From positions 1-29,888 of the forward strand of contig JANQHR010000001.1 in assembly GCA_028282585.1 (NCBI GenBank): a DNA stretch of 29,888 nucleotides, read 5' to 3'. Of this stretch, positions 3,708 through 14,605 are shown piece after piece. The notes beneath the pieces are model-generated. The model had not been told where the DNA came from and searched no databases. It saw nothing but the letters and a program-made list of their open reading frames with translations. The stretch comes from Bacteroidales bacterium (GTDB taxonomy: Bacteria; Bacteroidota; Bacteroidia; Bacteroidales; UBA12077). The translations under genes were made by a program, and so were the position numbers. The stretch's first letter is position 1. Each line of letters opens with the position of its first letter.

Positions 3708-3763
3708 CCGTCAGCTTTAGCTGGCGGATAATAATAAGCAAACACAATCTCGGGCTTTAGCCC
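3708..3763 (+). repeat. Left REP-like doublet (two TTTA-loop hairpins)
   Basis: CCGTCAGC-TTTA-GCTGGCGG (3708-3727) and GGGC-TTTA-GCCC (3752-3763). The second contains the transposase stop codon. Confidence 0.8.
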
Positions 3764-4194
3764 ATTTTTACTTTTTCAAATTTATACTTATCAATAAACT
3801 GATTATACTCTTCAGAAAGAGTCTTTTTTCGATGATGCTCCTCTTGGTTTTTAATATATTTCCTTAAATTACTAAGTTGTGACTCTCCAATAGAAACAGC
3901 AAAATAATCATCCTGCCAACTGAACTTTAAAGAAGTTAATCTATTCTTATTTATCCAATATGAGGATTCTCCTTTTATCTTTTGCATCACATCTGCTATA
4001 TTTTGTTCCCTTTTTAAGCATATTAAACAATGTAAATGATCTTCAAAGCCTCCAATACAATCGATATAAATACCTTTTGATTTTGCATTTTCTAAAATAT
4101 GGGCTAAAATTTTATCTCTAACTTCTTTTTTGAGTAAAGGCTTTCTGTACTTAGTTGTCCAAACGCAATGAATCCAGATTTTTGTATACGACAT
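3757..4194 (-). CDS. tnpA: IS200/IS605-family HUH Y1 tyrosine transposase (RAYT/TnpA-REP-like)
   Basis: HxVWxTKYR N-terminus, HUH motif DHLHCL, KGESS, WQDDY, catalytic helix YIKNQ; 145 aa; no tnpB nearby. Confidence 0.9.
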   Translation of the reverse strand: MSYTKIWIHCVWTTKYRKPLLKKEVRDKILAHILENAKSKGIYIDCIGGFEDHLHCLICLKREQNIADVMQKIKGESSYWINKNRLTSLKFSWQDDYFAVSIGESQLSNLRKYIKNQEEHHRKKTLSEEYNQFIDKYKFEKVKMG

Positions 4195-4225
4195 TTTATT
4201 TGTTTTTATCTAATTTACAAATAAT

Positions 4226-4281
4226 GAACTAAAGCCCAAAATTTAGAAAAAATGTTTCCGTCGGCTAAAGCCAACGGAAAC
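4226..4281 (-). repeat. Right REP-like doublet, inverted relative to the left one
   Basis: GAAC-TAAA-GCCC (degenerate, 4226-4237) and GTTTCCGTCGGC-TAAA-GCCAACGGAAAC (4254-4281). Confidence 0.8.
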
Positions 4282-4318
4282 TATAGCAAATTATTTGTTT
4301 AAATAAAAACTTCTCAGG

Positions 4319-6655
4319 TTATTCATAACGAAGTGCATCAACAGGATTTAATTTAGAAGCTCTATATGATTGATACGAAATTGCAATAAATGTAATCGTT
4401 AATACAATCAAGAAAGATGCAATAAATGCCCAGTAAGGTAATTCTGTACGAAAGGCAAAACCTTGCAACCATTTACTCATTAAATACCAGGTAATTGGAA
4501 TTGCAATAATATTCGACCATATAACTAATTTGTTTAATTCATTCGAAAGCATTAACACTATTCTAAATGCATTTGCTCCATTTACTTTACGAATACCTAT
4601 TTCTTTTGATTTTCGTTGAATTGTAAAGGAAATTAATCCAATAATACCCAAACATGCAATTAATATTGATATGATCGAAAAAAGAATAAAAAGCCTGCTA
4701 AATTCTATCTCCTTTTTATATTTTGACTGTAAATACTTATCGACAAAGTTAAGTTCGAATGGGAAATTAGGTGAAAAATCTTCCCATATCCCATTTATTT
4801 CGTTTATAACTTTAGTCCAATTATCGCTGTCAATTCTTATATTAATCATACTTGCATACTCTGCTTCCAATAGTATTGCTAAAGGTTCTATATTTTTATG
4901 TAAAGTTTCAAAAGAGTAATCTTTAACAACACCTATAACTTCACCATCGAATATTTTTTCTCCAACCGCATTTCCATTAAATATTTCTCGCGCAGCAGTT
5001 TCATTAAGAAGAAATTTATCTTTATCAGTTTTTACATTTCCAGTAAAATTTCTTCCTTCAATTAGTTCAATACCTAAAGTTTCCAAATAATCTTTATCGC
5101 CAAATTCAATATGGCACGCGTAACTTTTTTCTCCATCATTCCTTGACCAATGCTCTGATTGCAAACGGTAAGAAGCATATGAGTATGAGACATTCTTAAT
5201 ATCTGTTCTTTTTAATAATTCATCCTTAAAAGCATCTTGCTTTTTTCGAATATCTGAATTCATTTTTAAATAAATAAGTTGTTCTTTATCAAATCCCAGA
5301 TCTTTTTTCTGAATATATCTCATTTGAATTAAAACAATAAATGTTGCTATCACAAGTGAACTAGCAATGATATATTGAACTACAATAAGTGTTTTCCGAA
5401 TTAAAATTCCGGTTTTCCCATGGGTCACTTCTTTATTCATGGCTTTAACAGAATTAATCCCGGATACATGCAATGCTGGAAAAACACCGGATAAAATCCC
5501 AATTAAGACCCCACCCATTAGGAAGTAAAAGATTAGTGCCGGGTTCTCAAAGTATCCAATCTTTATTTGAATATTTAAATAATCATTAAAAATTGGTTTC
5601 AGAATCTCAATAAATACTAAGGACAGGTTAATAGCAATTACAGAAAAGACAATTGATTCAATAATTAGTTGGAAGAATACGATTTTGTTTTTAGCACCTA
5701 TAACCTTCCTAACGCCTAATTCTTTGGATCTGTTATATAATTGTGCTACGGTTAAGTTTATATAATTAATTATTGCAATTAATAAAATGATGATCCCAAC
5801 AACTATGAATATTTTCAATTGAGCTTTATTTCCACTTTCAAATTCGTATGCTCTGGAATTTGTAAAATAAATATCTTTCAATGATACTAACTTAAAGTTG
5901 ACTTCACTTATCTCATTCGTGAATTTTGAAAAATATGCTCTTAAATGATTAGTAATTTTTTCTTCTAATATTTCTTTATTAGTTCCTTCATTAACTAAAA
6001 AATAGGTATAGTAGTTCCACATTCCAAAATGATTAAATAATTCTTCATCATTTCGAAATTTTTTAAGATTTTCTATGGATATTATTGCATTAGCTTGAAT
6101 ATGAGAATTATCTGGCATATCTTTTATTACTCCAGTTACTTCAAAATTATATTTGTTGTTAAATAGTATCTGCTTACTTACCGGATCTTCATCGCCGAAT
6201 ATTTTAGAAGCAGTTGTTTCGTTAAGAACAATTGTATAAGGTCGATTAAGTAAATCTTGTTTAGTTCCTTTAACCAATTCATAAGAAAACATATCAAAAA
6301 AAGATGAATCTGCCAAAAGCAAATTTTTCACTTCTTGGATATTATCTTCATATTTAACCACGTAATCACGATATGAATCCATTCTGTTAAAGTTTTTTAT
6401 TTCAGGAAATTCATTCGTTAATAATTCACCTACCATACCTGGTGAAAGAGCTAACTGATTTTCGGTAACTAAATCTAAACGATAAATGTTTTCATAATTT
6501 TGATTAAACTTATCGTGGTTTAACTCATGTAAAACATAGAAAATAATAATTAGAAATATGGCTATTCCAAAACCTAAGCCCCCAATATTTATAAAAGAAA
6601 TGAATTTATTTCTTACAATATTTCGAAATGCTGTTTTGATATAATTTTTAAACAT
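4319..6655 (-). CDS. ABC transporter permease, duplicated MacB-periplasmic/FtsX domains (Bacteroidota type)
   Basis: MFKNYIKTAFRN start, two R.KE.G.RKV.GA motifs, C-terminus NPVDALRYE; 778 aa. Confidence 0.92.
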   Translation of the reverse strand: MFKNYIKTAFRNIVRNKFISFINIGGLGFGIAIFLIIIFYVLHELNHDKFNQNYENIYRLDLVTENQLALSPGMVGELLTNEFPEIKNFNRMDSYRDYVVKYEDNIQEVKNLLLADSSFFDMFSYELVKGTKQDLLNRPYTIVLNETTASKIFGDEDPVSKQILFNNKYNFEVTGVIKDMPDNSHIQANAIISIENLKKFRNDEELFNHFGMWNYYTYFLVNEGTNKEILEEKITNHLRAYFSKFTNEISEVNFKLVSLKDIYFTNSRAYEFESGNKAQLKIFIVVGIIILLIAIINYINLTVAQLYNRSKELGVRKVIGAKNKIVFFQLIIESIVFSVIAINLSLVFIEILKPIFNDYLNIQIKIGYFENPALIFYFLMGGVLIGILSGVFPALHVSGINSVKAMNKEVTHGKTGILIRKTLIVVQYIIASSLVIATFIVLIQMRYIQKKDLGFDKEQLIYLKMNSDIRKKQDAFKDELLKRTDIKNVSYSYASYRLQSEHWSRNDGEKSYACHIEFGDKDYLETLGIELIEGRNFTGNVKTDKDKFLLNETAAREIFNGNAVGEKIFDGEVIGVVKDYSFETLHKNIEPLAILLEAEYASMINIRIDSDNWTKVINEINGIWEDFSPNFPFELNFVDKYLQSKYKKEIEFSRLFILFSIISILIACLGIIGLISFTIQRKSKEIGIRKVNGANAFRIVLMLSNELNKLVIWSNIIAIPITWYLMSKWLQGFAFRTELPYWAFIASFLIVLTITFIAISYQSYRASKLNPVDALRYE

Positions 6656-6687
6656 AGCTATTAAATTTAAAATTTGAATTTATATAG

Positions 6688-6702
6688 CCTAATACCATAC
6701 CA
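6688..6702 (-). promoter_or_regulatory. Sigma54-like -24/-12 promoter for the permease
   Basis: Minus strand TGGTATGGTATTAGG: GG-N10-GG, a degenerate -12; about 60 bp from the tandem UAS; an enhancer-binding protein is encoded adjacent. Confidence 0.5.
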
Positions 6703-6763
6703 TAATCATCAAAAATCTCTTATTTAATTGGTTACACAATATACTTACTACTCACAATAGGAT

Positions 6764-6805
6764 TTGTGTCTAATTTTAGGACTCGTTGTGTCCATTTTTT
6801 GGACT
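6764..6805. promoter_or_regulatory. Tandem palindromic enhancer (UAS) sites for the NtrC-type regulator
   Basis: TTGTGTCTAATTTTAGGACT and TTGTGTCCATTTTTTGGACT, core GTC(C/T)-N7-GGAC, 22 bp apart. Confidence 0.7.
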
Positions 6806-6854
6806 TACATTCATTTTTTTATAAATTGCTCAAACGAATTTAATAAAGTTTTTT

Positions 6855-8222
6855 ATGCAAAACGCCAGGATTTTAATTGTAGATGACAATAAAAACATTC
6901 TCAATGCACTTAATCAAATTTTAAGCGATGAGTTTTCTAATATAATCACAAGTTCTAATCCAAACTTAATTCCGGAAATATTATCGAATAATAAAATAGA
7001 CATTGTATTATTAGACATGAATTTTGTTGCAGGATTAAATACTGGTAATGAAGGTATATTCTGGTTAAACAAAATAAAAGAGATTGATAATTCAATAATG
7101 GTTATACTCATAACAGCTTATGGAGATGTTAATCTGGCTGTAGAAGCCATGAAGCAAGGTGCATCCGATTTTATTCTTAAACCATGGGATAATGATAAAT
7201 TGATTATAACAATTAATAATGTTTTAAAACTCAAATACTCTAATGAAAAAATAAAATCTCTTGAAAACAAACAAGATCATTTGAATGAGATAATCAATAA
7301 AAGCATTGATCCTTTAATTGGAGAATCACAAGGTTTTAAGCAGATACAAAATTTAATTTCCAAAGTTGCCAAAACCGATGCAAATATTTTAATATTTGGT
7401 GAAAATGGTACAGGTAAAGAACTAGTCGCAAGAGAAATTCACAAGCAATCCAAACGAAGTACTCATTCACTTGTAAATATAGATGTTGGAACCTTACCTG
7501 ATACATTATTTGAAAGTGAACTATTTGGTTATAAAAAAGGGGCTTTTACTGATGCTAAAGAAGATCGAACAGGTAAAATAAAAGTAGCAGAAAATGGTAC
7601 TTTATTTTTAGATGAAATTTCAAACCTTTCCTACTCCAATCAAGCTAAACTTCTAACCATTCTGCAACAAAAAAGAGTGAATCCCGTCGGATCTAACCAA
7701 TCATATCCGGTTGATTTTAGACTAATTTGTGCAACTAATAAAGATCTAAAACAACTGCTTATTGAAAATTTATTCAGAGAAGATCTTTTATACAGAATCA
7801 ATACTATTCAGATTGATATCCCACCATTAAGAGAAAGAAAAGAAGATATTCCTTTACTCACAGATCATTTTTTAACGTTTTATAAAAAGAAATATGATAA
7901 AGTGAATCTTAAAGTCAGTAATGATGCTAATGAGCAACTTATGCGGTATTATTGGCCTGGTAATATCCGGGAATTAAAACATACCATAGAAAAAGCGGTA
8001 ATTTTAAGTGAAAGTAATATTCTCCGCTCATCGGATTTTTTATTGGATAGTCCTATAATTAGTAGATTCAATAAAGATTATCCTAAAAAGCTTGATGAAG
8101 TTGAAAAAGATGCAATATTAAGAGCATTAGGAAATAACAATGGAAATATAAAGGAAACGGCTAAAGAACTTGGCATTGCACGTCAGACATTATATAACAA
8201 AATGCAGAAATATGATTTATAA
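6855..8222 (+). CDS. Sigma54-dependent response regulator (NtrC/AtoC family: REC, AAA+, Fis-type HTH)
   Basis: VDD and LLDMNF receiver, GENGTGKE Walker A, GAFTDA loop, LFLDEI Walker B, WPGNIREL, TAKELGIARQTLY HTH. Confidence 0.95.
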   Translation: MQNARILIVDDNKNILNALNQILSDEFSNIITSSNPNLIPEILSNNKIDIVLLDMNFVAGLNTGNEGIFWLNKIKEIDNSIMVILITAYGDVNLAVEAMKQGASDFILKPWDNDKLIITINNVLKLKYSNEKIKSLENKQDHLNEIINKSIDPLIGESQGFKQIQNLISKVAKTDANILIFGENGTGKELVAREIHKQSKRSTHSLVNIDVGTLPDTLFESELFGYKKGAFTDAKEDRTGKIKVAENGTLFLDEISNLSYSNQAKLLTILQQKRVNPVGSNQSYPVDFRLICATNKDLKQLLIENLFREDLLYRINTIQIDIPPLRERKEDIPLLTDHFLTFYKKKYDKVNLKVSNDANEQLMRYYWPGNIRELKHTIEKAVILSESNILRSSDFLLDSPIISRFNKDYPKKLDEVEKDAILRALGNNNGNIKETAKELGIARQTLYNKMQKYDL

Positions 8223-8230
8223 AACCTTAT

Positions 8231-9598
8231 ATGAATAATAAAAATATACTATTAAATATTCTTGTAAGAATATTGCTCGTAATTATAAATTGCTTTTTGA
8301 TTGCATTTGCATATAGAATAGTAAAAAACGAATATGTTTTTGTAGTAGTTAATTTGTCAGTTTTACTTACAATACAGATAATATTATTTATTCGATTCTT
8401 TATTAGATTAAGCTCTGATATAAAACTTTTTTTTGAAGCAATTTCCAACAATGATTCGTCATTACTTTTCGAATCACAAAACAAACAAATTCTAATCTCA
8501 AATTACAACGAGTTTCTCCAAAAAATCAGTAACACAATTCAAGAAAAAAATCTTGAGATTGTAAAACAAAAAACGTTACTTGAAGGTGTTTTTGAAAATG
8601 CTAAAGTTGGAATCATTACTTATTTAAACGATGGTAAAATTGATTCATTCAACACTTATGCAGAAGTGCTTTTAAATATCAAGAAAACAACCTATATATC
8701 AGAACTTAATAAAGCCCATTCAGCTTTACCAACATTATTAAAAGAACTTGAACCAACCAAAAATCAAACATTAAGAGTTAATTTTCCATCAAAGGAACAT
8801 CCCGACATTATTGAATCTAAAGTATTATCTTTTACTAAATCTATATTTGGTATTGATAATAGGATCATAAATTTAATTTCTTTTAACGATATTAGAAATG
8901 AATTAGAAAATAAAGAAATGGAGTCATGGCAAAAATTGATTCGTGTGTTAACACACGAAATAATGAATTCCATTAGTCCAATTACTTCATTAACAAAAGC
9001 TGTTTTAGGTTATATAAATGAAATTGAAAAAGACTCTCATACAGAGAAGAACATTAAAAAAACTCAAACAAGTATAAAAACAATTGAATCAACTAGTAAT
9101 TCTTTACTTCATTTTGTTGAACAATACAGAAACTTAACATTACTTCCCAAACCTACATTTACAGAATTCAAAATCTCATATTTATTTGATGACATTGGCA
9201 CTCTATTTAAACAAGAACTGTTAGAAAAAGATATTGACTTTCAAGTTATGGAAATTAGTCAAAACACCTCTGTTAATGCAGATTATGATTTGTTAAAGCA
9301 AGTAATGATAAATCTAATCAAAAATGCTGTTTTTGCTTTAAAAGGAAGTCAAAAAGCACGGATAGGACTGAACTTCTCTAAAAATTCCAAAAATCAGAAT
9401 ATAATCCAGGTTATAGATAATGGTAAAGGTATTGATGAATCATTAATTGATAAAATATTTATCCCCTTCTTTACAACAAAAGAAACCGGAACTGGGATTG
9501 GTCTAAGTCTATCAAAGCAAATAATGAGATTGCATAGTGGCGATATAGTTGTTAAATCTAATCCAAATAATTCAACTGTATTTTCTTTGATATTTTAA
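8231..9598 (+). CDS. NtrY-like sensor histidine kinase
   Basis: Two N-terminal TMs, PAS-like segment, H-box LTHEIMNS, N-box NLIKNA, DNGKG, PFFTTK, GTGIGL. Confidence 0.93.
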   Translation: MNNKNILLNILVRILLVIINCFLIAFAYRIVKNEYVFVVVNLSVLLTIQIILFIRFFIRLSSDIKLFFEAISNNDSSLLFESQNKQILISNYNEFLQKISNTIQEKNLEIVKQKTLLEGVFENAKVGIITYLNDGKIDSFNTYAEVLLNIKKTTYISELNKAHSALPTLLKELEPTKNQTLRVNFPSKEHPDIIESKVLSFTKSIFGIDNRIINLISFNDIRNELENKEMESWQKLIRVLTHEIMNSISPITSLTKAVLGYINEIEKDSHTEKNIKKTQTSIKTIESTSNSLLHFVEQYRNLTLLPKPTFTEFKISYLFDDIGTLFKQELLEKDIDFQVMEISQNTSVNADYDLLKQVMINLIKNAVFALKGSQKARIGLNFSKNSKNQNIIQVIDNGKGIDESLIDKIFIPFFTTKETGTGIGLSLSKQIMRLHSGDIVVKSNPNNSTVFSLIF

Positions 9599-9648: not shown

Positions 9649-10665
9649 TTATCGAGATTCCTTTTTATCACGCCAATACTGAATGTATTTTTCTTGGGTT
9701 ATAATTCCAACAGGCCCTTTATAAATTCCGCCATGAAATCTGCCATCATATACTCTAACAGCGATTGTATTTAAGGTATTTGGTTTAAGAATATTATCCG
9801 GTAAATAATAACCTCTAAATTGGTTATACTCTGACGATATGATGATGTCATTAAAACCTTTTTCAAATCTTCCTGTTGCAGCTACCAGTTGACCGTTAAT
9901 ATATAACTGATCAATATCATCAATTTTTCCAAGTACTAAAACCAATTTATTCGAAATTAATTCAATATTAGGTTCTATTTGAATTACATACCATGCAAAC
10001 CCATCATAATTTCGGTATCCTTGATTTTCCCATGTACCCGGTACAATAATTTCATCCCAATCTGAATAATTGTTTAAATTGCTCCATCGGAGATTATCAC
10101 CAGTTTTGAATTTCCATAAACCTTGTAAATCAATATCAAGTTGCATTGGGTATTTTTCTTTTAATAACCTAATATTACCTCTAATAATCCCACCTTCTAA
10201 TTTCTCATCGAATACCCTTACGGCAATTAGGTTCTCTGAATCATATTTTATTAAACTTTTAGGAATAAGATATAATCTTTTTGCGTTGTATGCAGTTTTA
10301 TAATTCGGAGGAAAAGACCCCGTTGATCCGATTTTATTTCCATTTACATAAACATCATCAACATCATCAACGTACCCTAGCTCAAGATATAAATTTTGAT
10401 TATTGAACTCTGCTGGTATATTGATCTTTTTGCGATACCACGCAATTCCATCATAACCATGATAACCTTGTGATTCCCATGAGCCGGGCACCTTTAATTC
10501 ATTCCAATTTTCATCATTAAAATTGTTACTTGCCCATTCCTGATCATCACCAATAGAAAATTTCCATCTTCCTTCTAAATCAGCAATTGTGGATAATTCC
10601 TGATTGAAAGATTCCAAGAAAACAAAACACAAACCTATTATGATATATAATTTCTTTCTCAACAT
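9649..10665 (-). CDS. Secreted protein of two galactose-binding-like jelly-roll domains (GH2-N / beta-galactosidase jelly-roll type), no catalytic domain
   Basis: Signal peptide; twice WKF..GD...W...VPG.WE.QGY..YDG.AWY...LG..DD.D..Y.NG...N.IAVRV.D....GGI; TAATG overlap with the upstream paralogue. Confidence 0.8.
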   Translation of the reverse strand: MLRKKLYIIIGLCFVFLESFNQELSTIADLEGRWKFSIGDDQEWASNNFNDENWNELKVPGSWESQGYHGYDGIAWYRKKINIPAEFNNQNLYLELGYVDDVDDVYVNGNKIGSTGSFPPNYKTAYNAKRLYLIPKSLIKYDSENLIAVRVFDEKLEGGIIRGNIRLLKEKYPMQLDIDLQGLWKFKTGDNLRWSNLNNYSDWDEIIVPGTWENQGYRNYDGFAWYVIQIEPNIELISNKLVLVLGKIDDIDQLYINGQLVAATGRFEKGFNDIIISSEYNQFRGYYLPDNILKPNTLNTIAVRVYDGRFHGGIYKGPVGIITQEKYIQYWRDKKESR

Positions 10666-11717
10666 TAATTATTTAATAAGTTCCAGATGGTAATATTACG
10701 GTAATATTTTCTTTCAAAATATTTAAATTTTTCTTCAGTTGTAATACCAACCGGCCCTTCGTAAATACCGCCATCTTTATAATAGTCATAAACCTTAACA
10801 ATTACAGTATTTTTTTCATTTTTCATAATATATTTTTTCGGAATCTCATATCCGCGTAAGGCCTGATATTCATCACCTTTAGAGGAATACGCACCTCTTT
10901 TCTTTAAATCAAATACAGTTCCTATAAGTCTACCATTAAAATAAACATAGTCGTAATCATCTATTCTACCTAATAACAATACTAAATTATCTTCTGCTAA
11001 TTTTTCGGGGATAACAAAAGTTTTCATATATACAGCATAACCGTCATATTCTTCAAAACCTTCATCTTCCCACTTAGCTGGAACATTAATTTTTGTCCAT
11101 TCAAGCTCCGATAGTTTAGGATTTATGTTATTTGAGGGTTGGCTTAATGCGAAACTCCATTTCCCTTCCAAATTAATCTCGAGTAAATCGTTTGTAATAT
11201 CATAATATAATCCCACATCTCCTGCAAGAATTCCGCCATTTAAATGGGAATCATAAACTCGAACAGCAATTACGTTATTGTTATCTCTTTTTAATAAACT
11301 ATGTGGAACACTATATATTCGTTCTGTATTATACGCAGTTAAGAATGTTGGGAAAAAGCTTCCTGACTGCCCTATCTTTTCTCCATTTACAAACACTTCG
11401 TCTACATCATCAATTTTTCCAAGGACAAGGTAAATTGGTTTTTCTAAATCAAAGCTTGACAACTTAAAAGTCTTTCTGTACCAGGCAAAGCCATTATATT
11501 CTTCATACCCTTGTGATTCCCATAACCCGGGAACATACAACCTGTCCCAATCATTATCATTAAAATCCACCTCTAACCATTCTTCATTATCTCCAACGGA
11601 GAATTGCCAATATCCTTGCAAACCTCTAAAGCGCTCTAATTCCTGAGCAACTAATTCGTTTGCAAAGATTAGCAAAGCAAGAAATATCACAAGCATTTTA
11701 ACTAAAGAGAATTTCAT
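10665..11717 (-). CDS. Paralogous secreted tandem jelly-roll (lectin/CBM-like) protein
   Basis: Same duplicated motif set. Start set at MKFSLVKML (11717), which gives a signal peptide and removes the overlap with the upstream gene. Confidence 0.8.
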   Translation of the reverse strand: MKFSLVKMLVIFLALLIFANELVAQELERFRGLQGYWQFSVGDNEEWLEVDFNDNDWDRLYVPGLWESQGYEEYNGFAWYRKTFKLSSFDLEKPIYLVLGKIDDVDEVFVNGEKIGQSGSFFPTFLTAYNTERIYSVPHSLLKRDNNNVIAVRVYDSHLNGGILAGDVGLYYDITNDLLEINLEGKWSFALSQPSNNINPKLSELEWTKINVPAKWEDEGFEEYDGYAVYMKTFVIPEKLAEDNLVLLLGRIDDYDYVYFNGRLIGTVFDLKKRGAYSSKGDEYQALRGYEIPKKYIMKNEKNTVIVKVYDYYKDGGIYEGPVGITTEEKFKYFERKYYRNITIWNLLNN

Positions 11718-11727
11718 GTGATGTAAG

Positions 11728-12093
11728 TTAATAAACATACTTAAATTTAATTTTAATCCAATAAATGTCCTCATTAAACAGATACTTCTCTAAGTATAAA
11801 CCACTATTTGCCAATAATTCTTTGGAGTATTCAACTAACTCTGAATTTTTCCCAAGGACATGATAAAAATGAACCGTTCCATCATTGTTTACAGAAAAAC
11901 ACACGGATAATTCACTTTTTTTAGTATCATTCATAATTTCCTCAAACGGCATTTCAGCAAACAATTCTTTAATATCAATGTTCAGCTGAGATATTGCTTT
12001 TTTCCTGGCAATTTTATTATCTTTTGATTGCCCTACCGTTGAAACCGTTAAAAGAACTAATACGGTTAATGTTAAAATTCTCATTGTTTTCAT
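11728..12093 (-). CDS. Small secreted protein, TonB C-terminal-domain-like
   Basis: Signal peptide MKTMRILTLTVLVLLTVSTVG; P...ELSVCFSVNNDGTVHFYHV...helix...YWIKIKF parallels TonB-CTD V.V.F.V...G.V...helix...PI.F. Confidence 0.55.
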   Translation of the reverse strand: MKTMRILTLTVLVLLTVSTVGQSKDNKIARKKAISQLNIDIKELFAEMPFEEIMNDTKKSELSVCFSVNNDGTVHFYHVLGKNSELVEYSKELLANSGLYLEKYLFNEDIYWIKIKFKYVY

Positions 12094-12131
12094 GACTTTT
12101 AAAGTTTAGTTTAACATATTTATTTACAATG

Positions 12132-12206
12132 CTAAACTACAACCCTCTTAACACTAACTCGTCACAATAATGTCAAAGTTCGTCATTTAATGTCACAAAA
12201 ATGTCA
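12132..12206 (-). promoter_or_regulatory. Promoter with five phased direct repeats (OmpR/PhoB-type operator) and a -7-like element
   Basis: GTCA at 12161, 12172, 12182, 12192 and 12203 (+ strand; spacing 11/10/10/11); TAGTTTAG -7-like element on the minus strand at 12139-12132. Confidence 0.75.
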
Positions 12207-12211
12207 TCGGT

Positions 12212-12904
12212 TTAACTAATAACAAGCTTATAACCTATTCCATGCATAGTTAGAATATAATTTGGCCTATTCGGATCATCTTCAACCTTCTGTCTTAATT
12301 TAAGAATAAAGTTATCTATTGTTCTCGGAGTGGGCTGGTAATCGAATCCCCAAACTTCATCAAGTAATATATTTCGTGTTACAGTACCATTTTTCCTTCT
12401 CCACAAACAATGTAAAATTTCAAATTCTTTTATCGATAGCTTTATTGGCTTTTTATTTAAAAAAGCATTGTATGTATCAAAGTTTACCGTCAGATTTCCG
12501 ATTTGAATCTCTTTTGATTCCTCGGCAATGGCATCAGTATGTTGAGCTCTCCTTAAAACTGCTTTTACTCTTGCTAATAGTTCTCTTAAACTAAAAGGTT
12601 TTGTTATATAGTCATCACCACCCGTTTCTAAGCCAATAACCTTATCTATTTCTTCTGATTTTGCTGTTAAGAAAATAATAGGAGTTTCTATCCCTTCCTT
12701 TCTTGCTTTTTTACAAATATCAAAGCCTGAAATATTTGGCAACATTACGTCTAATATGATTAAATCGAAACCTGTATGAAGTATTTTGTTTAAACCTAAA
12801 CTTCCATCGCTGGCCGTATCAACATTATACCCTTCAAACTCAAGATTATCCTTTAATCCTGATAACATATGCGGTTCATCTTCAACAATCAGTATTTTAG
12901 CCAT
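12212..12904 (-). CDS. OmpR/PhoB-family response regulator
   Basis: ILIVEDE, LDVMLP, DDYITKPF, winged helix RTIDNFILKLRQK...T..GIGY. Confidence 0.95.
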   Translation of the reverse strand: MAKILIVEDEPHMLSGLKDNLEFEGYNVDTASDGSLGLNKILHTGFDLIILDVMLPNISGFDICKKARKEGIETPIIFLTAKSEEIDKVIGLETGGDDYITKPFSLRELLARVKAVLRRAQHTDAIAEESKEIQIGNLTVNFDTYNAFLNKKPIKLSIKEFEILHCLWRRKNGTVTRNILLDEVWGFDYQPTPRTIDNFILKLRQKVEDDPNRPNYILTMHGIGYKLVIS

Positions 12905-12914
12905 TTCTTAAATA

Positions 12915-14483
12915 TTATGTTTGTAACGGAAATAATAATTTAAAGCTACTTCCTATATTGGGTTTACTGTTAACAGTTATCCTACCTTTATGAGCATCCA
13001 TAATATGTTTAACAATACTTAAACCCAGACCTGAACCTTGCGCTTTATAAGCCAGATCCGCTTCACGAACTCTATAAAATTTTTCGAAAATATGCTTTTG
13101 TTCTTTTTCATTAATTCCTATACCATTATCCCTAATTTCAATAAATTGATATTTTCCCTCAGTATTTGTTAATATGCTTATATGTTTATTCTCTTCACTA
13201 TACTTTACTGAATTAGATATCAAATTAATAACTGCATCCTTTACAGCATCTTTATCTATAATAATTTTAGAGAGATCATCCGAAAGAATTAAATCATATG
13301 TAAAACCTTTGCTCTGCAGCTCGTGTTTATATACATGTATTACTTCATTAACCACTTCATTTAATAAACAAGCAATAAATGAATAAGACCGTTTATTATT
13401 TTCAATCCTGGAAAAATTTAGAATATTACTTACTATTCCGTTTAACCTATTTGTTTCTAATTGAATAACCTCATAGTATTCTTTCTTTTTTTTATCATCT
13501 TTTACCCTATCCATCATTAAAGTTTCCGAATACATCGAAATCATTGCTAAAGGTGTCCTTAATTCGTGAGATACATTTGAAACAAACTCGCTCTTTATTT
13601 TTGCTAGCTCCATTTCTTTTTTCACATTATAATATAAAAACCAGGTTCCGAAAATGATTAATAAATTAAATAATATAACCAAGAATATTACGGTTCTTAC
13701 CCTCTTTTTGACCAAATCATTCAAGGTTTTACCTGTTAAGTGAATTCCTACACTGTAACCAGGGATAAGCCATAATTCCTTTGATTTTTGAACACTTTCC
13801 ACATCATTTATGGAAGTACTATTTGAATATACTATTTCGGATTTATTGTTTTCAAAAACCAAAATATTCATTCTTTCTTCTCCAATTTGCTGAATTTTAG
13901 GAGATAAGATTTCCGACACAAATTGCTTAGTATTTATTGTAAGTATACCTACATTTTGTTTGTTGTCTTTCATTAACACAAAAACTAAAAAGGTTAATTC
14001 TGGTGCTACTAAAAATTGTTCTCCCAATACTTTTTGGTAATTATTTCCTAAATAATCAAATAAATCTGATATTTCATTTTGGTTACCTTCTAAATATTCT
14101 ATAATAGCCAGATTTATTACTTCTTTATCATTCCGTTTTGAAATTTCTATTCCTGGAATTTCCGGATTATCGTAATTTAAAATATTCAGCTGTCTTAATA
14201 CATCATTTCGATTTAAGAAATTATCCAAACTATTTAAATTAACTTGTGCATCAGATGAATAGATTTCATCAATCCTCTTTACCCATGCATCTGTTACATC
14301 AACCGAATATTGATTAATCGAGAATAAAATTGATTCCAGTTGATTATTATATACCTCATCAATTACCATTTCTTCATCAGTTATTGTGCTATATTGGTAA
14401 ATCGAGAAAATAAAACTTGGAACAATAACCACTAAAACAACAAATAAAACAGAAAGCAATATTTTGTTTCTAAAAAAGTTCAT
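12915..14483 (-). CDS. Sensor histidine kinase with an approximately 230-aa periplasmic domain
   Basis: TM1, periplasmic region, TM2, H-box SHELRTPL, NLISNSVKYS, DNGIG, FEKFYR, GSGLGL. Confidence 0.95.
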   Translation of the reverse strand: MNFFRNKILLSVLFVVLVVIVPSFIFSIYQYSTITDEEMVIDEVYNNQLESILFSINQYSVDVTDAWVKRIDEIYSSDAQVNLNSLDNFLNRNDVLRQLNILNYDNPEIPGIEISKRNDKEVINLAIIEYLEGNQNEISDLFDYLGNNYQKVLGEQFLVAPELTFLVFVLMKDNKQNVGILTINTKQFVSEILSPKIQQIGEERMNILVFENNKSEIVYSNSTSINDVESVQKSKELWLIPGYSVGIHLTGKTLNDLVKKRVRTVIFLVILFNLLIIFGTWFLYYNVKKEMELAKIKSEFVSNVSHELRTPLAMISMYSETLMMDRVKDDKKKKEYYEVIQLETNRLNGIVSNILNFSRIENNKRSYSFIACLLNEVVNEVIHVYKHELQSKGFTYDLILSDDLSKIIIDKDAVKDAVINLISNSVKYSEENKHISILTNTEGKYQFIEIRDNGIGINEKEQKHIFEKFYRVREADLAYKAQGSGLGLSIVKHIMDAHKGRITVNSKPNIGSSFKLLFPLQT

Positions 14484-14555
14484 CTATAACTATCTTGGTT
14501 TAAGGACAATGTCTAAAGTTAAATATTAATTTTATATATCTGTATTGATTCATGT

Positions 14556-14586
14556 AAAAAAGGTTGGTTATTTAAGTCCAACCTTT
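14556..14586 (-). terminator. Terminator after the EamA gene
   Basis: AAAGGTTGG-N10-CCAACCTTT with an A run on the left (U tract on the minus strand). Confidence 0.7.
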
Positions 14587-14605
14587 CTTTAAATCTGATA
14601 TTTAA

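Follow-up and report, generated by a model that had tools for sequence, protein, structure and literature searches.

We analysed a 29,888-bp stretch of DNA from a Bacteroidales bacterium (GenBank assembly GCA_028282585.1, contig JANQHR010000001.1), hereafter the window, which is a whole contig (C9) of a 4.89-Mb genome, 98% complete. A module of five genes, all on the minus strand, lies at positions 9649-14483: a sensor histidine kinase, an OmpR/PhoB-type response regulator, and three secreted proteins, one small and TonB_C-like, the other two made of tandem jelly-roll domains. Together with an array of five phased half-sites ahead of the secreted genes, the module probably forms a dedicated two-component circuit, sensing the envelope or a glycan, whose output consists of periplasmic binding proteins. 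The observations presented below concern the gene anatomy, a fixed geometry between array and promoter, and the way in which the kinase, the regulator, the array and the jelly-roll genes are conserved and occur together.

The kinase gene (12915-14483, 522 aa) comes first and the regulator gene (12212-12904, 230 aa) second. The 118-bp gap between the regulator and the next ORF (12094-12211) contains the array of five direct TGAC(A/G) half-sites (12160-12206) and, 25 nt from the fifth of them, the -7 box TAGTTTAG (12132-12139), all on the minus strand. The output operon then starts with the gene of the small TonB_C/TolA-III-like protein (11728-12093, 121 aa), followed by those of jelly-roll protein A (10665-11717, 350 aa, with a hydrophobic C-terminal tail) and jelly-roll protein B (9649-10665, 338 aa). 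The ATG of protein A, at 11717, is 10 bp past the stop of the 121-aa ORF; a start at 11774, where the longest ORF begins, would make it overlap the small gene, and orthologues back the start at 11717. The gene of protein B overlaps that of protein A by one base (TAATG). A first-pass annotation, made from the letters of the window, had described the five co-oriented genes, the large periplasmic domain of the kinase, the OmpR-type regulator, the five-repeat operator and the tight packing of the secreted genes (10-bp gap, TAATG overlap), and our analysis bears out each of these. No hydrolase, SusC/SusD or transporter gene is present within 9649-14483, as it had also stated, and the SusC/SusD pair with glycan-degrading enzymes that makes a polysaccharide utilisation locus is not found there.

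A search for the jelly-roll family yielded 5887 candidates of 185-592 aa, of which 3676 are members at E≤1e-10; their source names include Marinilabiliales, environmental Bacteroidales, Ignavibacteria/Melioribacter and Calditrichaceae. Among 40 relatives, the tandem pair was present in 2 of the 24 genomes of the same genus and in 1 of the 16 genomes of other families in the order. In the two same-genus carriers all five genes stand in the order of the window, and the five half-sites are present. In genome G031 the order is small ORF, A, B, kinase and regulator, with TGACA repeats ahead of the small ORF.

The surroundings of the jelly-roll genes were then surveyed in the 80 best loci, taking one genome per species, and genes were counted as linked when they were on the same strand and reached at least 50 bits for the sensor domain and at least 250 bits for the regulator. 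A sensor-matching kinase and a regulator lie beside the jelly-roll genes in 55 of the 80 loci, upstream of them in 43 and downstream in 12. Co-location with such a pair, whose absence the first-pass annotation had named beforehand as refuting its proposal, is thus the rule in these loci. In all-against-all clustering, three neighbour families and no others were present in more than 11 of the 80 loci: the regulator in 64, the kinase in 57, and a small HEAT-like protein in 39. Neither a hydrolase, nor SusC/D, nor a transporter is a conserved neighbour in the 80 loci.

Co-occurrence was measured in 300 genomes drawn evenly from the phylum. The full tandem protein was detected in 34 of them and the sensor domain in 32, all 32 within those 34. 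The two were linked within 5 kb in 23 genomes, and unlinked in 9. Because related genomes are not independent, this 32 out of 32 is to be read as a pattern, not as a statistic.

The half-sites of the array start at 12206, 12195, 12185, 12175 and 12164, giving a spacing of 11, 10, 10 and 11. A three-site version of the pattern had one match in the window, against 0.01 expected, and 1 of 100 shuffles matched. The full array (5 of 5 sites) is unique in the 4.89-Mb genome, five shuffles of which yielded 0, 0, 0, 0 and 1 occurrences. In 48 of 78 loci, the 250 bp upstream of the operon contain at least four phased T[G/T]AC repeats, compared to 37 of 4000 random windows taken from the same loci. With at least 4 of the 5 half-sites required, the exact 11-10-10-11 register was seen in 61 of 83 sources, and it is conserved across classes of the phylum. 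The array precedes the secreted genes in both gene orders, and persists in loci that lack an adjacent kinase/regulator pair (L062 and L084, for example).

The distance between array and promoter is fixed as well. The Bacteroidetes -7 promoter consensus is TAnnTTTG. A strict TAnnTTT[G/A] motif lies at +25 nt from the fifth half-site in 31 of the 61 arrays and at +26 in one, and at no other offset within the 45 nt that follow the fifth half-site. The box of the window, one mismatch away from TAnnTTTG, is also at +25. With this geometry the last half-site falls over the -33 region. Replacement of an upstream promoter element by an activator is known for OmpR and PhoB, and the array is the presumed binding site of the regulator, an activator site reaching the -33 region. 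Its direct half-sites, their helical spacing of 10-11 bp and their position abutting the promoter are features in common with OmpR and PhoB operators, which are phased direct repeats near -35, and T(G/T)AC(A/C) half-sites resemble the GTTACA/TTTACA of OmpR-type sites. It is set apart from them by the number of its half-sites, five, by their fixed 11-10-10-11 register, and by their distance of 25 nt from a -7 box of the Bacteroidetes type. A sigma-70 promoter scan gave 15 sites for a shuffle mean of 31.8, with a model that does not describe Bacteroidetes promoters.

Two other TGAC clusters in the genome (C154:72 and C93:1494) were rejected as a different repeat with inverted GTCA...TGAC arms, and not this operator. 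The regions G000:C154:1-200 and G000:C93:1300-1560 have in common a similar element of about 90 bp, in which three GTCA, an A-rich centre and three TGAC are arranged in inverted fashion. At locus L025 (3818-6368), a second full array of five half-sites stands ahead of a CarboxypepD_reg + Plug + OMP_b-brl_3 gene; this gene is directly upstream of the jelly-roll genes, and no kinase or regulator is found within 7-8 kb on either side.

The kinase has the elements expected of a two-component sensor: HisKA and HATPase_c domains spanning residues 297-521 (Pfam, 70 and 87 bits), and a conserved phospho-accepting histidine, H306, which is invariant across 52 orthologues together with the residues of the N, G1 and G2 boxes. 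No Pfam family covers residues 1-296. In an AlphaFold2 model built from the 52 orthologues (pLDDT 86), a helix at 7-77 is followed by an alpha/beta region at about 83-249 and by a second long helix, from 254, which continues directly into the DHp domain. We read this as two predicted membrane helices flanking a periplasmic alpha/beta domain of some 230 residues. A profile of the sensor region found nothing below E 0.05 among PDB sequences (best E 0.56). An Atlas features search with residues 29-262 returned unnamed clusters at 0.92-0.94, with the CSS-motif, dCache_1 and GAPES1 sensor families all below 0.9; both are taken as leads only. The regulator combines a receiver (Response_reg, 102 bits) with a winged helix (Trans_reg_C, 81 bits).

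We asked whether the pair could be PhoR/PhoB of the phosphate response, or another named system of the OmpR family that happens to have unrelated neighbours. PnpS and PhoR are indeed the best NCBIfam rows for the kinase core, the Bacteroidetes PhoB comes second for the regulator, and the reverse complement of the half-site, TGTCA, resembles the core of the Pho box. However, kinase and regulator stay below every curated cut-off of the named NCBIfam equivalogs (226 against 400, 191 against 334 and 204 against 270). More precisely, the kinase core scores 190.7 for PhoR (cut-off 334), and the regulator 203.9 for Bacteroidetes PhoB (cut-off 270) and 190.7 for PhoB (cut-off 296); no regulator anywhere in the genome passes the Bacteroidetes PhoB cut-off. 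In addition, the matches cover the catalytic core only, and PhoR would account neither for so large a periplasmic domain nor for the strict coupling to jelly-roll genes. This explanation is almost out of the question.

Proteins A and B match solely Pfam families of the GH2_N-like or galactose-binding-like kind. No TIM-barrel or esterase Pfam family was found in either (at E≤0.1 for esterase); the catalytic TIM barrel PF02836, which follows the jelly-roll in GH2 enzymes, and the SGNH/SASA domain of sialate O-acetylesterases are both missing. Each protein is an internal duplication. The halves of protein B are 42% identical (E 1e-39) and fill the whole protein, and A has 43% identity to B. Among solved structures, the nearest relatives are the sialate 9-O-acetylesterases 7kmm and 9ega (E 1.1e-27 and 1.3e-25), before GH2 enzymes at about 1e-15, and the match to 7kmm is restricted to residues 247-387, its inserted jelly-roll. 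Single copies of the signature domain head GH2, GH15, GH95, GH27/36, PF10091 and CE7-like enzymes. Unlike GH2 enzymes and sialate 9-O-acetylesterases, A and B have no catalytic domain, and two jelly-roll copies make up the protein. Based on the Pfam matches, the duplication, the solved relatives and the enzyme-borne single copies, we regard A and B as carbohydrate-module-like proteins without a catalytic domain, in keeping with the non-catalytic character that the first-pass annotation had assigned to them; from the fold, they would bind sugars.

All three secreted products begin with a hydrophobic N-terminus followed by Gln, which, read by eye, suggests type-I signal peptides. A lipobox-like motif occurs in just 5 of 66 orthologues of protein B. 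A lipobox-like N-terminus was also noted by regex in the jelly-roll protein of L075 and by eye in that of L060. A tree built from 117 jelly-roll proteins groups those that come first in a pair into one clade (SH-like 98); those that come second are interspersed with the single genes of Ignavibacteria-type loci. By this tree, protein B is the orthologue of the single gene of Ignavibacteria-type loci, and protein A a derived paralogue. The jelly-roll unit appears modular in other database proteins (P0124, P0125, P0126 and P0013): variants include three repeats (478 aa), a form of about 640 aa with jelly-roll Pfam families only and probably four repeats, and a tandem pair fused behind a PF10091 glucoamylase-like domain.

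Taken together, the circuit would work as follows. The membrane kinase would sense a periplasmic signal by means of its large domain, which belongs to no known family, and would phosphorylate the OmpR/PhoB-type regulator. The regulator would bind the five phased half-sites ending 25 nt before the -7 box, and activate the operon of Sec-exported proteins, i.e. the TonB_C-like protein and the two tandem jelly-roll proteins. We infer that these exported binding proteins are the main output of the circuit, and in this genome probably the only one. The jelly-roll proteins most likely bind a glycan or another envelope ligand in the periplasm, and may contact the sensor domain of the kinase, which would close a feedback loop.

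A simpler view is that the jelly-roll proteins are effectors only, a periplasmic sponge or protective binder for a glycan, a metal or a damaged envelope component, and that the kinase senses alone. The array being unique in the genome, the jelly-roll proteins would be the output, as this view holds. They are also far better conserved than the sensor domain: protein B is about 46-52% identical to most of 65 orthologues (alignment A3; 68% for the same-genus one), against 23-31% for the sensor domain. Each repeat moreover has an invariant acidic cluster (D100/D101/D103 and D249/D250/D252), and the support for a complex with the kinase, given below, is weak. What does not fit is the strict co-occurrence with one sensor domain, even when the genes are unlinked, the operon common to kinase and jelly-roll genes in 12 loci, and a homologous domain serving in cis as the input domain of a kinase. 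On balance, an effector-only role is rather unlikely.

The kinase with such an input domain is P0225, a 7TM histidine kinase whose N-terminal, extracytoplasmic part is the homologous jelly-roll; it is the only carrier of a kinase domain among 120 listed of the 381 'longer' jelly-roll matches (precomputed Pfam rows). P0225 is also the only relative with the 7TMR-DISM layout, which the window proteins do not have: no 7TMR-DISM Pfam match was found in the window kinase, which has two long helices. As for the feedback on the kinase raised by the first-pass annotation, complex prediction with kinase residues 30-260 and protein B scored 0.34, and 0.00 for the best of 3 controls, so that the support obtained is weak. 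Runs agreed in at least 88% of the contacts, with a partner pLDDT of at least 86. The mark for this score was reached by 58 of 80 solved complexes and by 2 of 110 mismatched pairs; at 0.60 or less, it was reached by 7 of the 80 solved complexes and by both mismatches that passed. These data weakly suggest that the jelly-roll proteins may partner the sensor domain of the kinase.

Contact could mean that the jelly-roll proteins are co-receptors, ligand-binding partners along the lines of LuxP, TorT or ChvE that would present the kinase with a glycan, and that the real regulon lies elsewhere. P0225, the score of 0.34 and the operon in common with the kinase in 12 loci point this way. Yet the genome, 98% complete, contains no second full array, the array fronts the jelly-roll genes in both gene orders, and a sensor that targets only itself has no output unless the proteins also act. 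We find such co-receptors with a regulon elsewhere very unlikely. A combination of both roles would be a split-sensor, self-inducing three-component system, with jelly-roll proteins that are at once ligand-binding co-receptors of the kinase and the sole transcriptional output of a glycan- or envelope-triggered switch, and with lineage-specific adaptors, encoded by the first gene, that tie the system to outer-membrane proteins bearing TonB boxes. Such a system may be widespread in Ignavibacteria and scattered in Bacteroidia, its adaptors being TonB_C-like here, HEAT-like in Ignavibacteria, and, in Bacteroidales, short peptides whose C-terminal strand is conserved. As a whole this more elaborate scheme is unlikely.

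The small protein has no Pfam match, and its profile found nothing below E 0.05 among PDB sequences. In a profile comparison it aligned in register with the TonB_C domains of the genome itself (probability 48%, E 1.8e-4). Its family has 1074 representatives at E≤0.001; nearly all of 150 relatives listed are 110-130 aa long, and 1 of 10 sampled members passes the Pfam TonB_C cut-off. In the model, one helix precedes a beta-beta-alpha-beta core, and structure comparison gives a TonB_C/TolA-III-like fold. The first-pass annotation had called this protein TonB-CTD-like, and the likeness is supported at the level of the fold and through this transitive Pfam match. After the hydrophobic stretch at its N-terminus comes ...VGQS, apparently a cleavage site for signal peptidase, and the N-terminal membrane anchor and proline-rich linker of a TonB are lacking. 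Unlike TonB and TolA, it would thus be a stand-alone protein with a cleavable signal peptide, and sequence and fold point to a secreted TonB_C-like domain rather than a TonB.

Which gene comes first in the operon depends on the lineage. In 15 Marinilabiliales-type loci it is TonB_C-like, in 39 loci (Ignavibacteria) HEAT-like, and in Bacteroidales-type loci it encodes a short peptide ending in SGK-x6-8-hydrophobic. The TonB_C-like gene is therefore accessory, and not part of the core. Only the first 15 matches were counted as relatives of the small protein: the jump from 15 to 35 at iteration 3 of the profile search was discarded as profile drift, because the added Ignavibacteria proteins of about 140 aa align as a different, HEAT-like family, itself without a Pfam match. 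This qualifies the self-contained module of the first-pass annotation: the linkage is conserved in the 55 loci, the jelly-roll protein accompanies the sensor domain in all 32 sensor carriers, and the array is kept in register, but the small gene is specific to a lineage. The Bacteroidales-type peptides (loci L028-L092, e.g. L046:2125-2403, L064:6583-6828 and L061:6538-6816, and also L016:7420-7672) are exported and 73-109 aa long, with a variable middle of low complexity and a conserved C-terminus, in which (F)SGK is separated by six to eight residues from the three or four hydrophobics that end the peptide. This C-terminus may be a strand that docks onto a partner. In a group of Ignavibacteria loci (L060, L075, L076, L077 and L089), the regulator is followed by two TPR proteins, the HEAT-like protein and a jelly-roll protein; no kinase is adjacent, and the array comes after the first TPR gene.

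The fold of the small protein also invites the proposal that the module is an accessory of uptake, serving a TonB-dependent outer-membrane transporter: the jelly-roll proteins would capture the substrate, and the TonB_C-like protein would couple or compete at TonB boxes. Genes with CarboxypepD_reg, Plug and OMP_b-brl_3 domains are found near the module in 7 of the 80 loci, a CarboxypepD_reg + Plug gene adjoins it in G031, and the transporter-type gene of L025 has its own 5-of-5 array, which ties the module thinly to TonB-dependent transport. Against this, the window has no such gene and no arrayed one was found in its genome, a transporter-type neighbour is absent from 73 of the 80 loci, and the small protein is lineage-specific. 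A role centred on uptake, or the modulation of TonB-dependent uptake that the first-pass annotation had raised, is very unlikely.

Several observations weigh against the dedicated circuit that we favour. Neither kinase nor regulator is found nearby in 18 of the 80 loci, and 7 have the regulator only; several of the unlinked loci end at a contig edge, but the flanks are complete in L025, L053, L062, L084 and L086. In genomes G153 and G193 the jelly-roll protein is present and no sensor domain was detected, and the operon starts with a first gene of three unrelated kinds. The 0.34 obtained for the complex falls in a band more often wrong than right, unless contact was likely beforehand. Fold searches with the full kinase model returned kinase cores only, leaving the fold of the sensor unmatched. 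Finally, the jelly-roll domain is not known to be an independent lectin in GH2 enzymes. With these points counted in, a dedicated circuit with exported binding proteins as its output is still what we consider probable.

Upstream of the module, a hairpin with a T-run (14556-14585, minus strand, loop of 10 nt) follows an EamA gene, and likely marks the boundary of the module, which would give the kinase-regulator pair a promoter of its own. No TGACR cluster is present at 14484-14605, upstream of the kinase gene. To see whether the module is an insertion, the EamA neighbourhood was looked at in five same-genus genomes, with a match only in G015, in a different context. On the other side, between RibH and the module, are an IS200-like transposase (3757-4194), a MacB/FtsX-type permease (4319-6655), and a sigma-54-dependent regulator with a kinase (6855-9598). 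In G008 a 113-aa zinc-ribbon-like ORF is all that is present in the interval matching 3757-9598, so the block seems to be an insertion specific to the strain.

Known two-component systems in which a periplasmic accessory protein is co-regulated include CpxAR-CpxP, ZraSR-ZraP and BaeSR-Spy. The module resembles them by its kinase, its regulator and an adjacent gene for an exported protein, with a presumed regulator site at the promoter, by a small or dedicated regulon, and by a possible feedback on the kinase. It differs in that the accessory proteins are tandem beta-sandwich jelly-rolls and not small helical proteins, that the sensor domain is of no known family, and that binding to the kinase is weakly supported. 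The 7TMR-DISM kinases RetS and LadS offer a second comparison, since a carbohydrate-module-like jelly-roll is their extracytoplasmic input, as in the homologue P0225. Here, in contrast, the jelly-roll is separate, secreted and tandem, and the kinase has two helices and an alpha/beta sensor of its own; Pfam places the window jelly-roll in GH2_N and BetaGal_ABD2, with no DISMED2 row at E up to 10. A preprint reports a response of the RetS Dismed2 domain to mucin glycans (bioRxiv 10.1101/2020.03.31.018614), and GH2_N has one listing as a chemoreceptor ligand-binding domain (PMC8547431). Full-text literature searches gave no published description of the module, in agreement with the first-pass annotation, which had not recognised a described system. 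The design, a two-component system with periplasmic accessory proteins, is a known one, and the module itself seems undescribed.

What is known of signal transduction in Bacteroidota concerns mostly hybrid two-component systems and ECF systems that belong to SusC/D loci. The circuit proposed here differs from these in being compact and conserved, in having an operator that is legible in the sequence with precision and a regulon that is apparently a single operon, and in making products that are non-enzymatic and carbohydrate-module-like. Several cultured carriers exist, so that direct testing is feasible; among the loci surveyed are those of Labilibaculum manganireducens 59.10-2M (L034), Ancylomarina longa T3-2 (L055), Marinifilum sp. 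RC60d5 (L045) and Saccharicrinis sp. 156 (L019). The module would provide a clean system for the study of OmpR-type activation at a Bacteroidetes -33/-7 promoter, and could also reveal the signal that a new periplasmic sensor domain responds to, and the function of stand-alone jelly-roll proteins in the periplasm.

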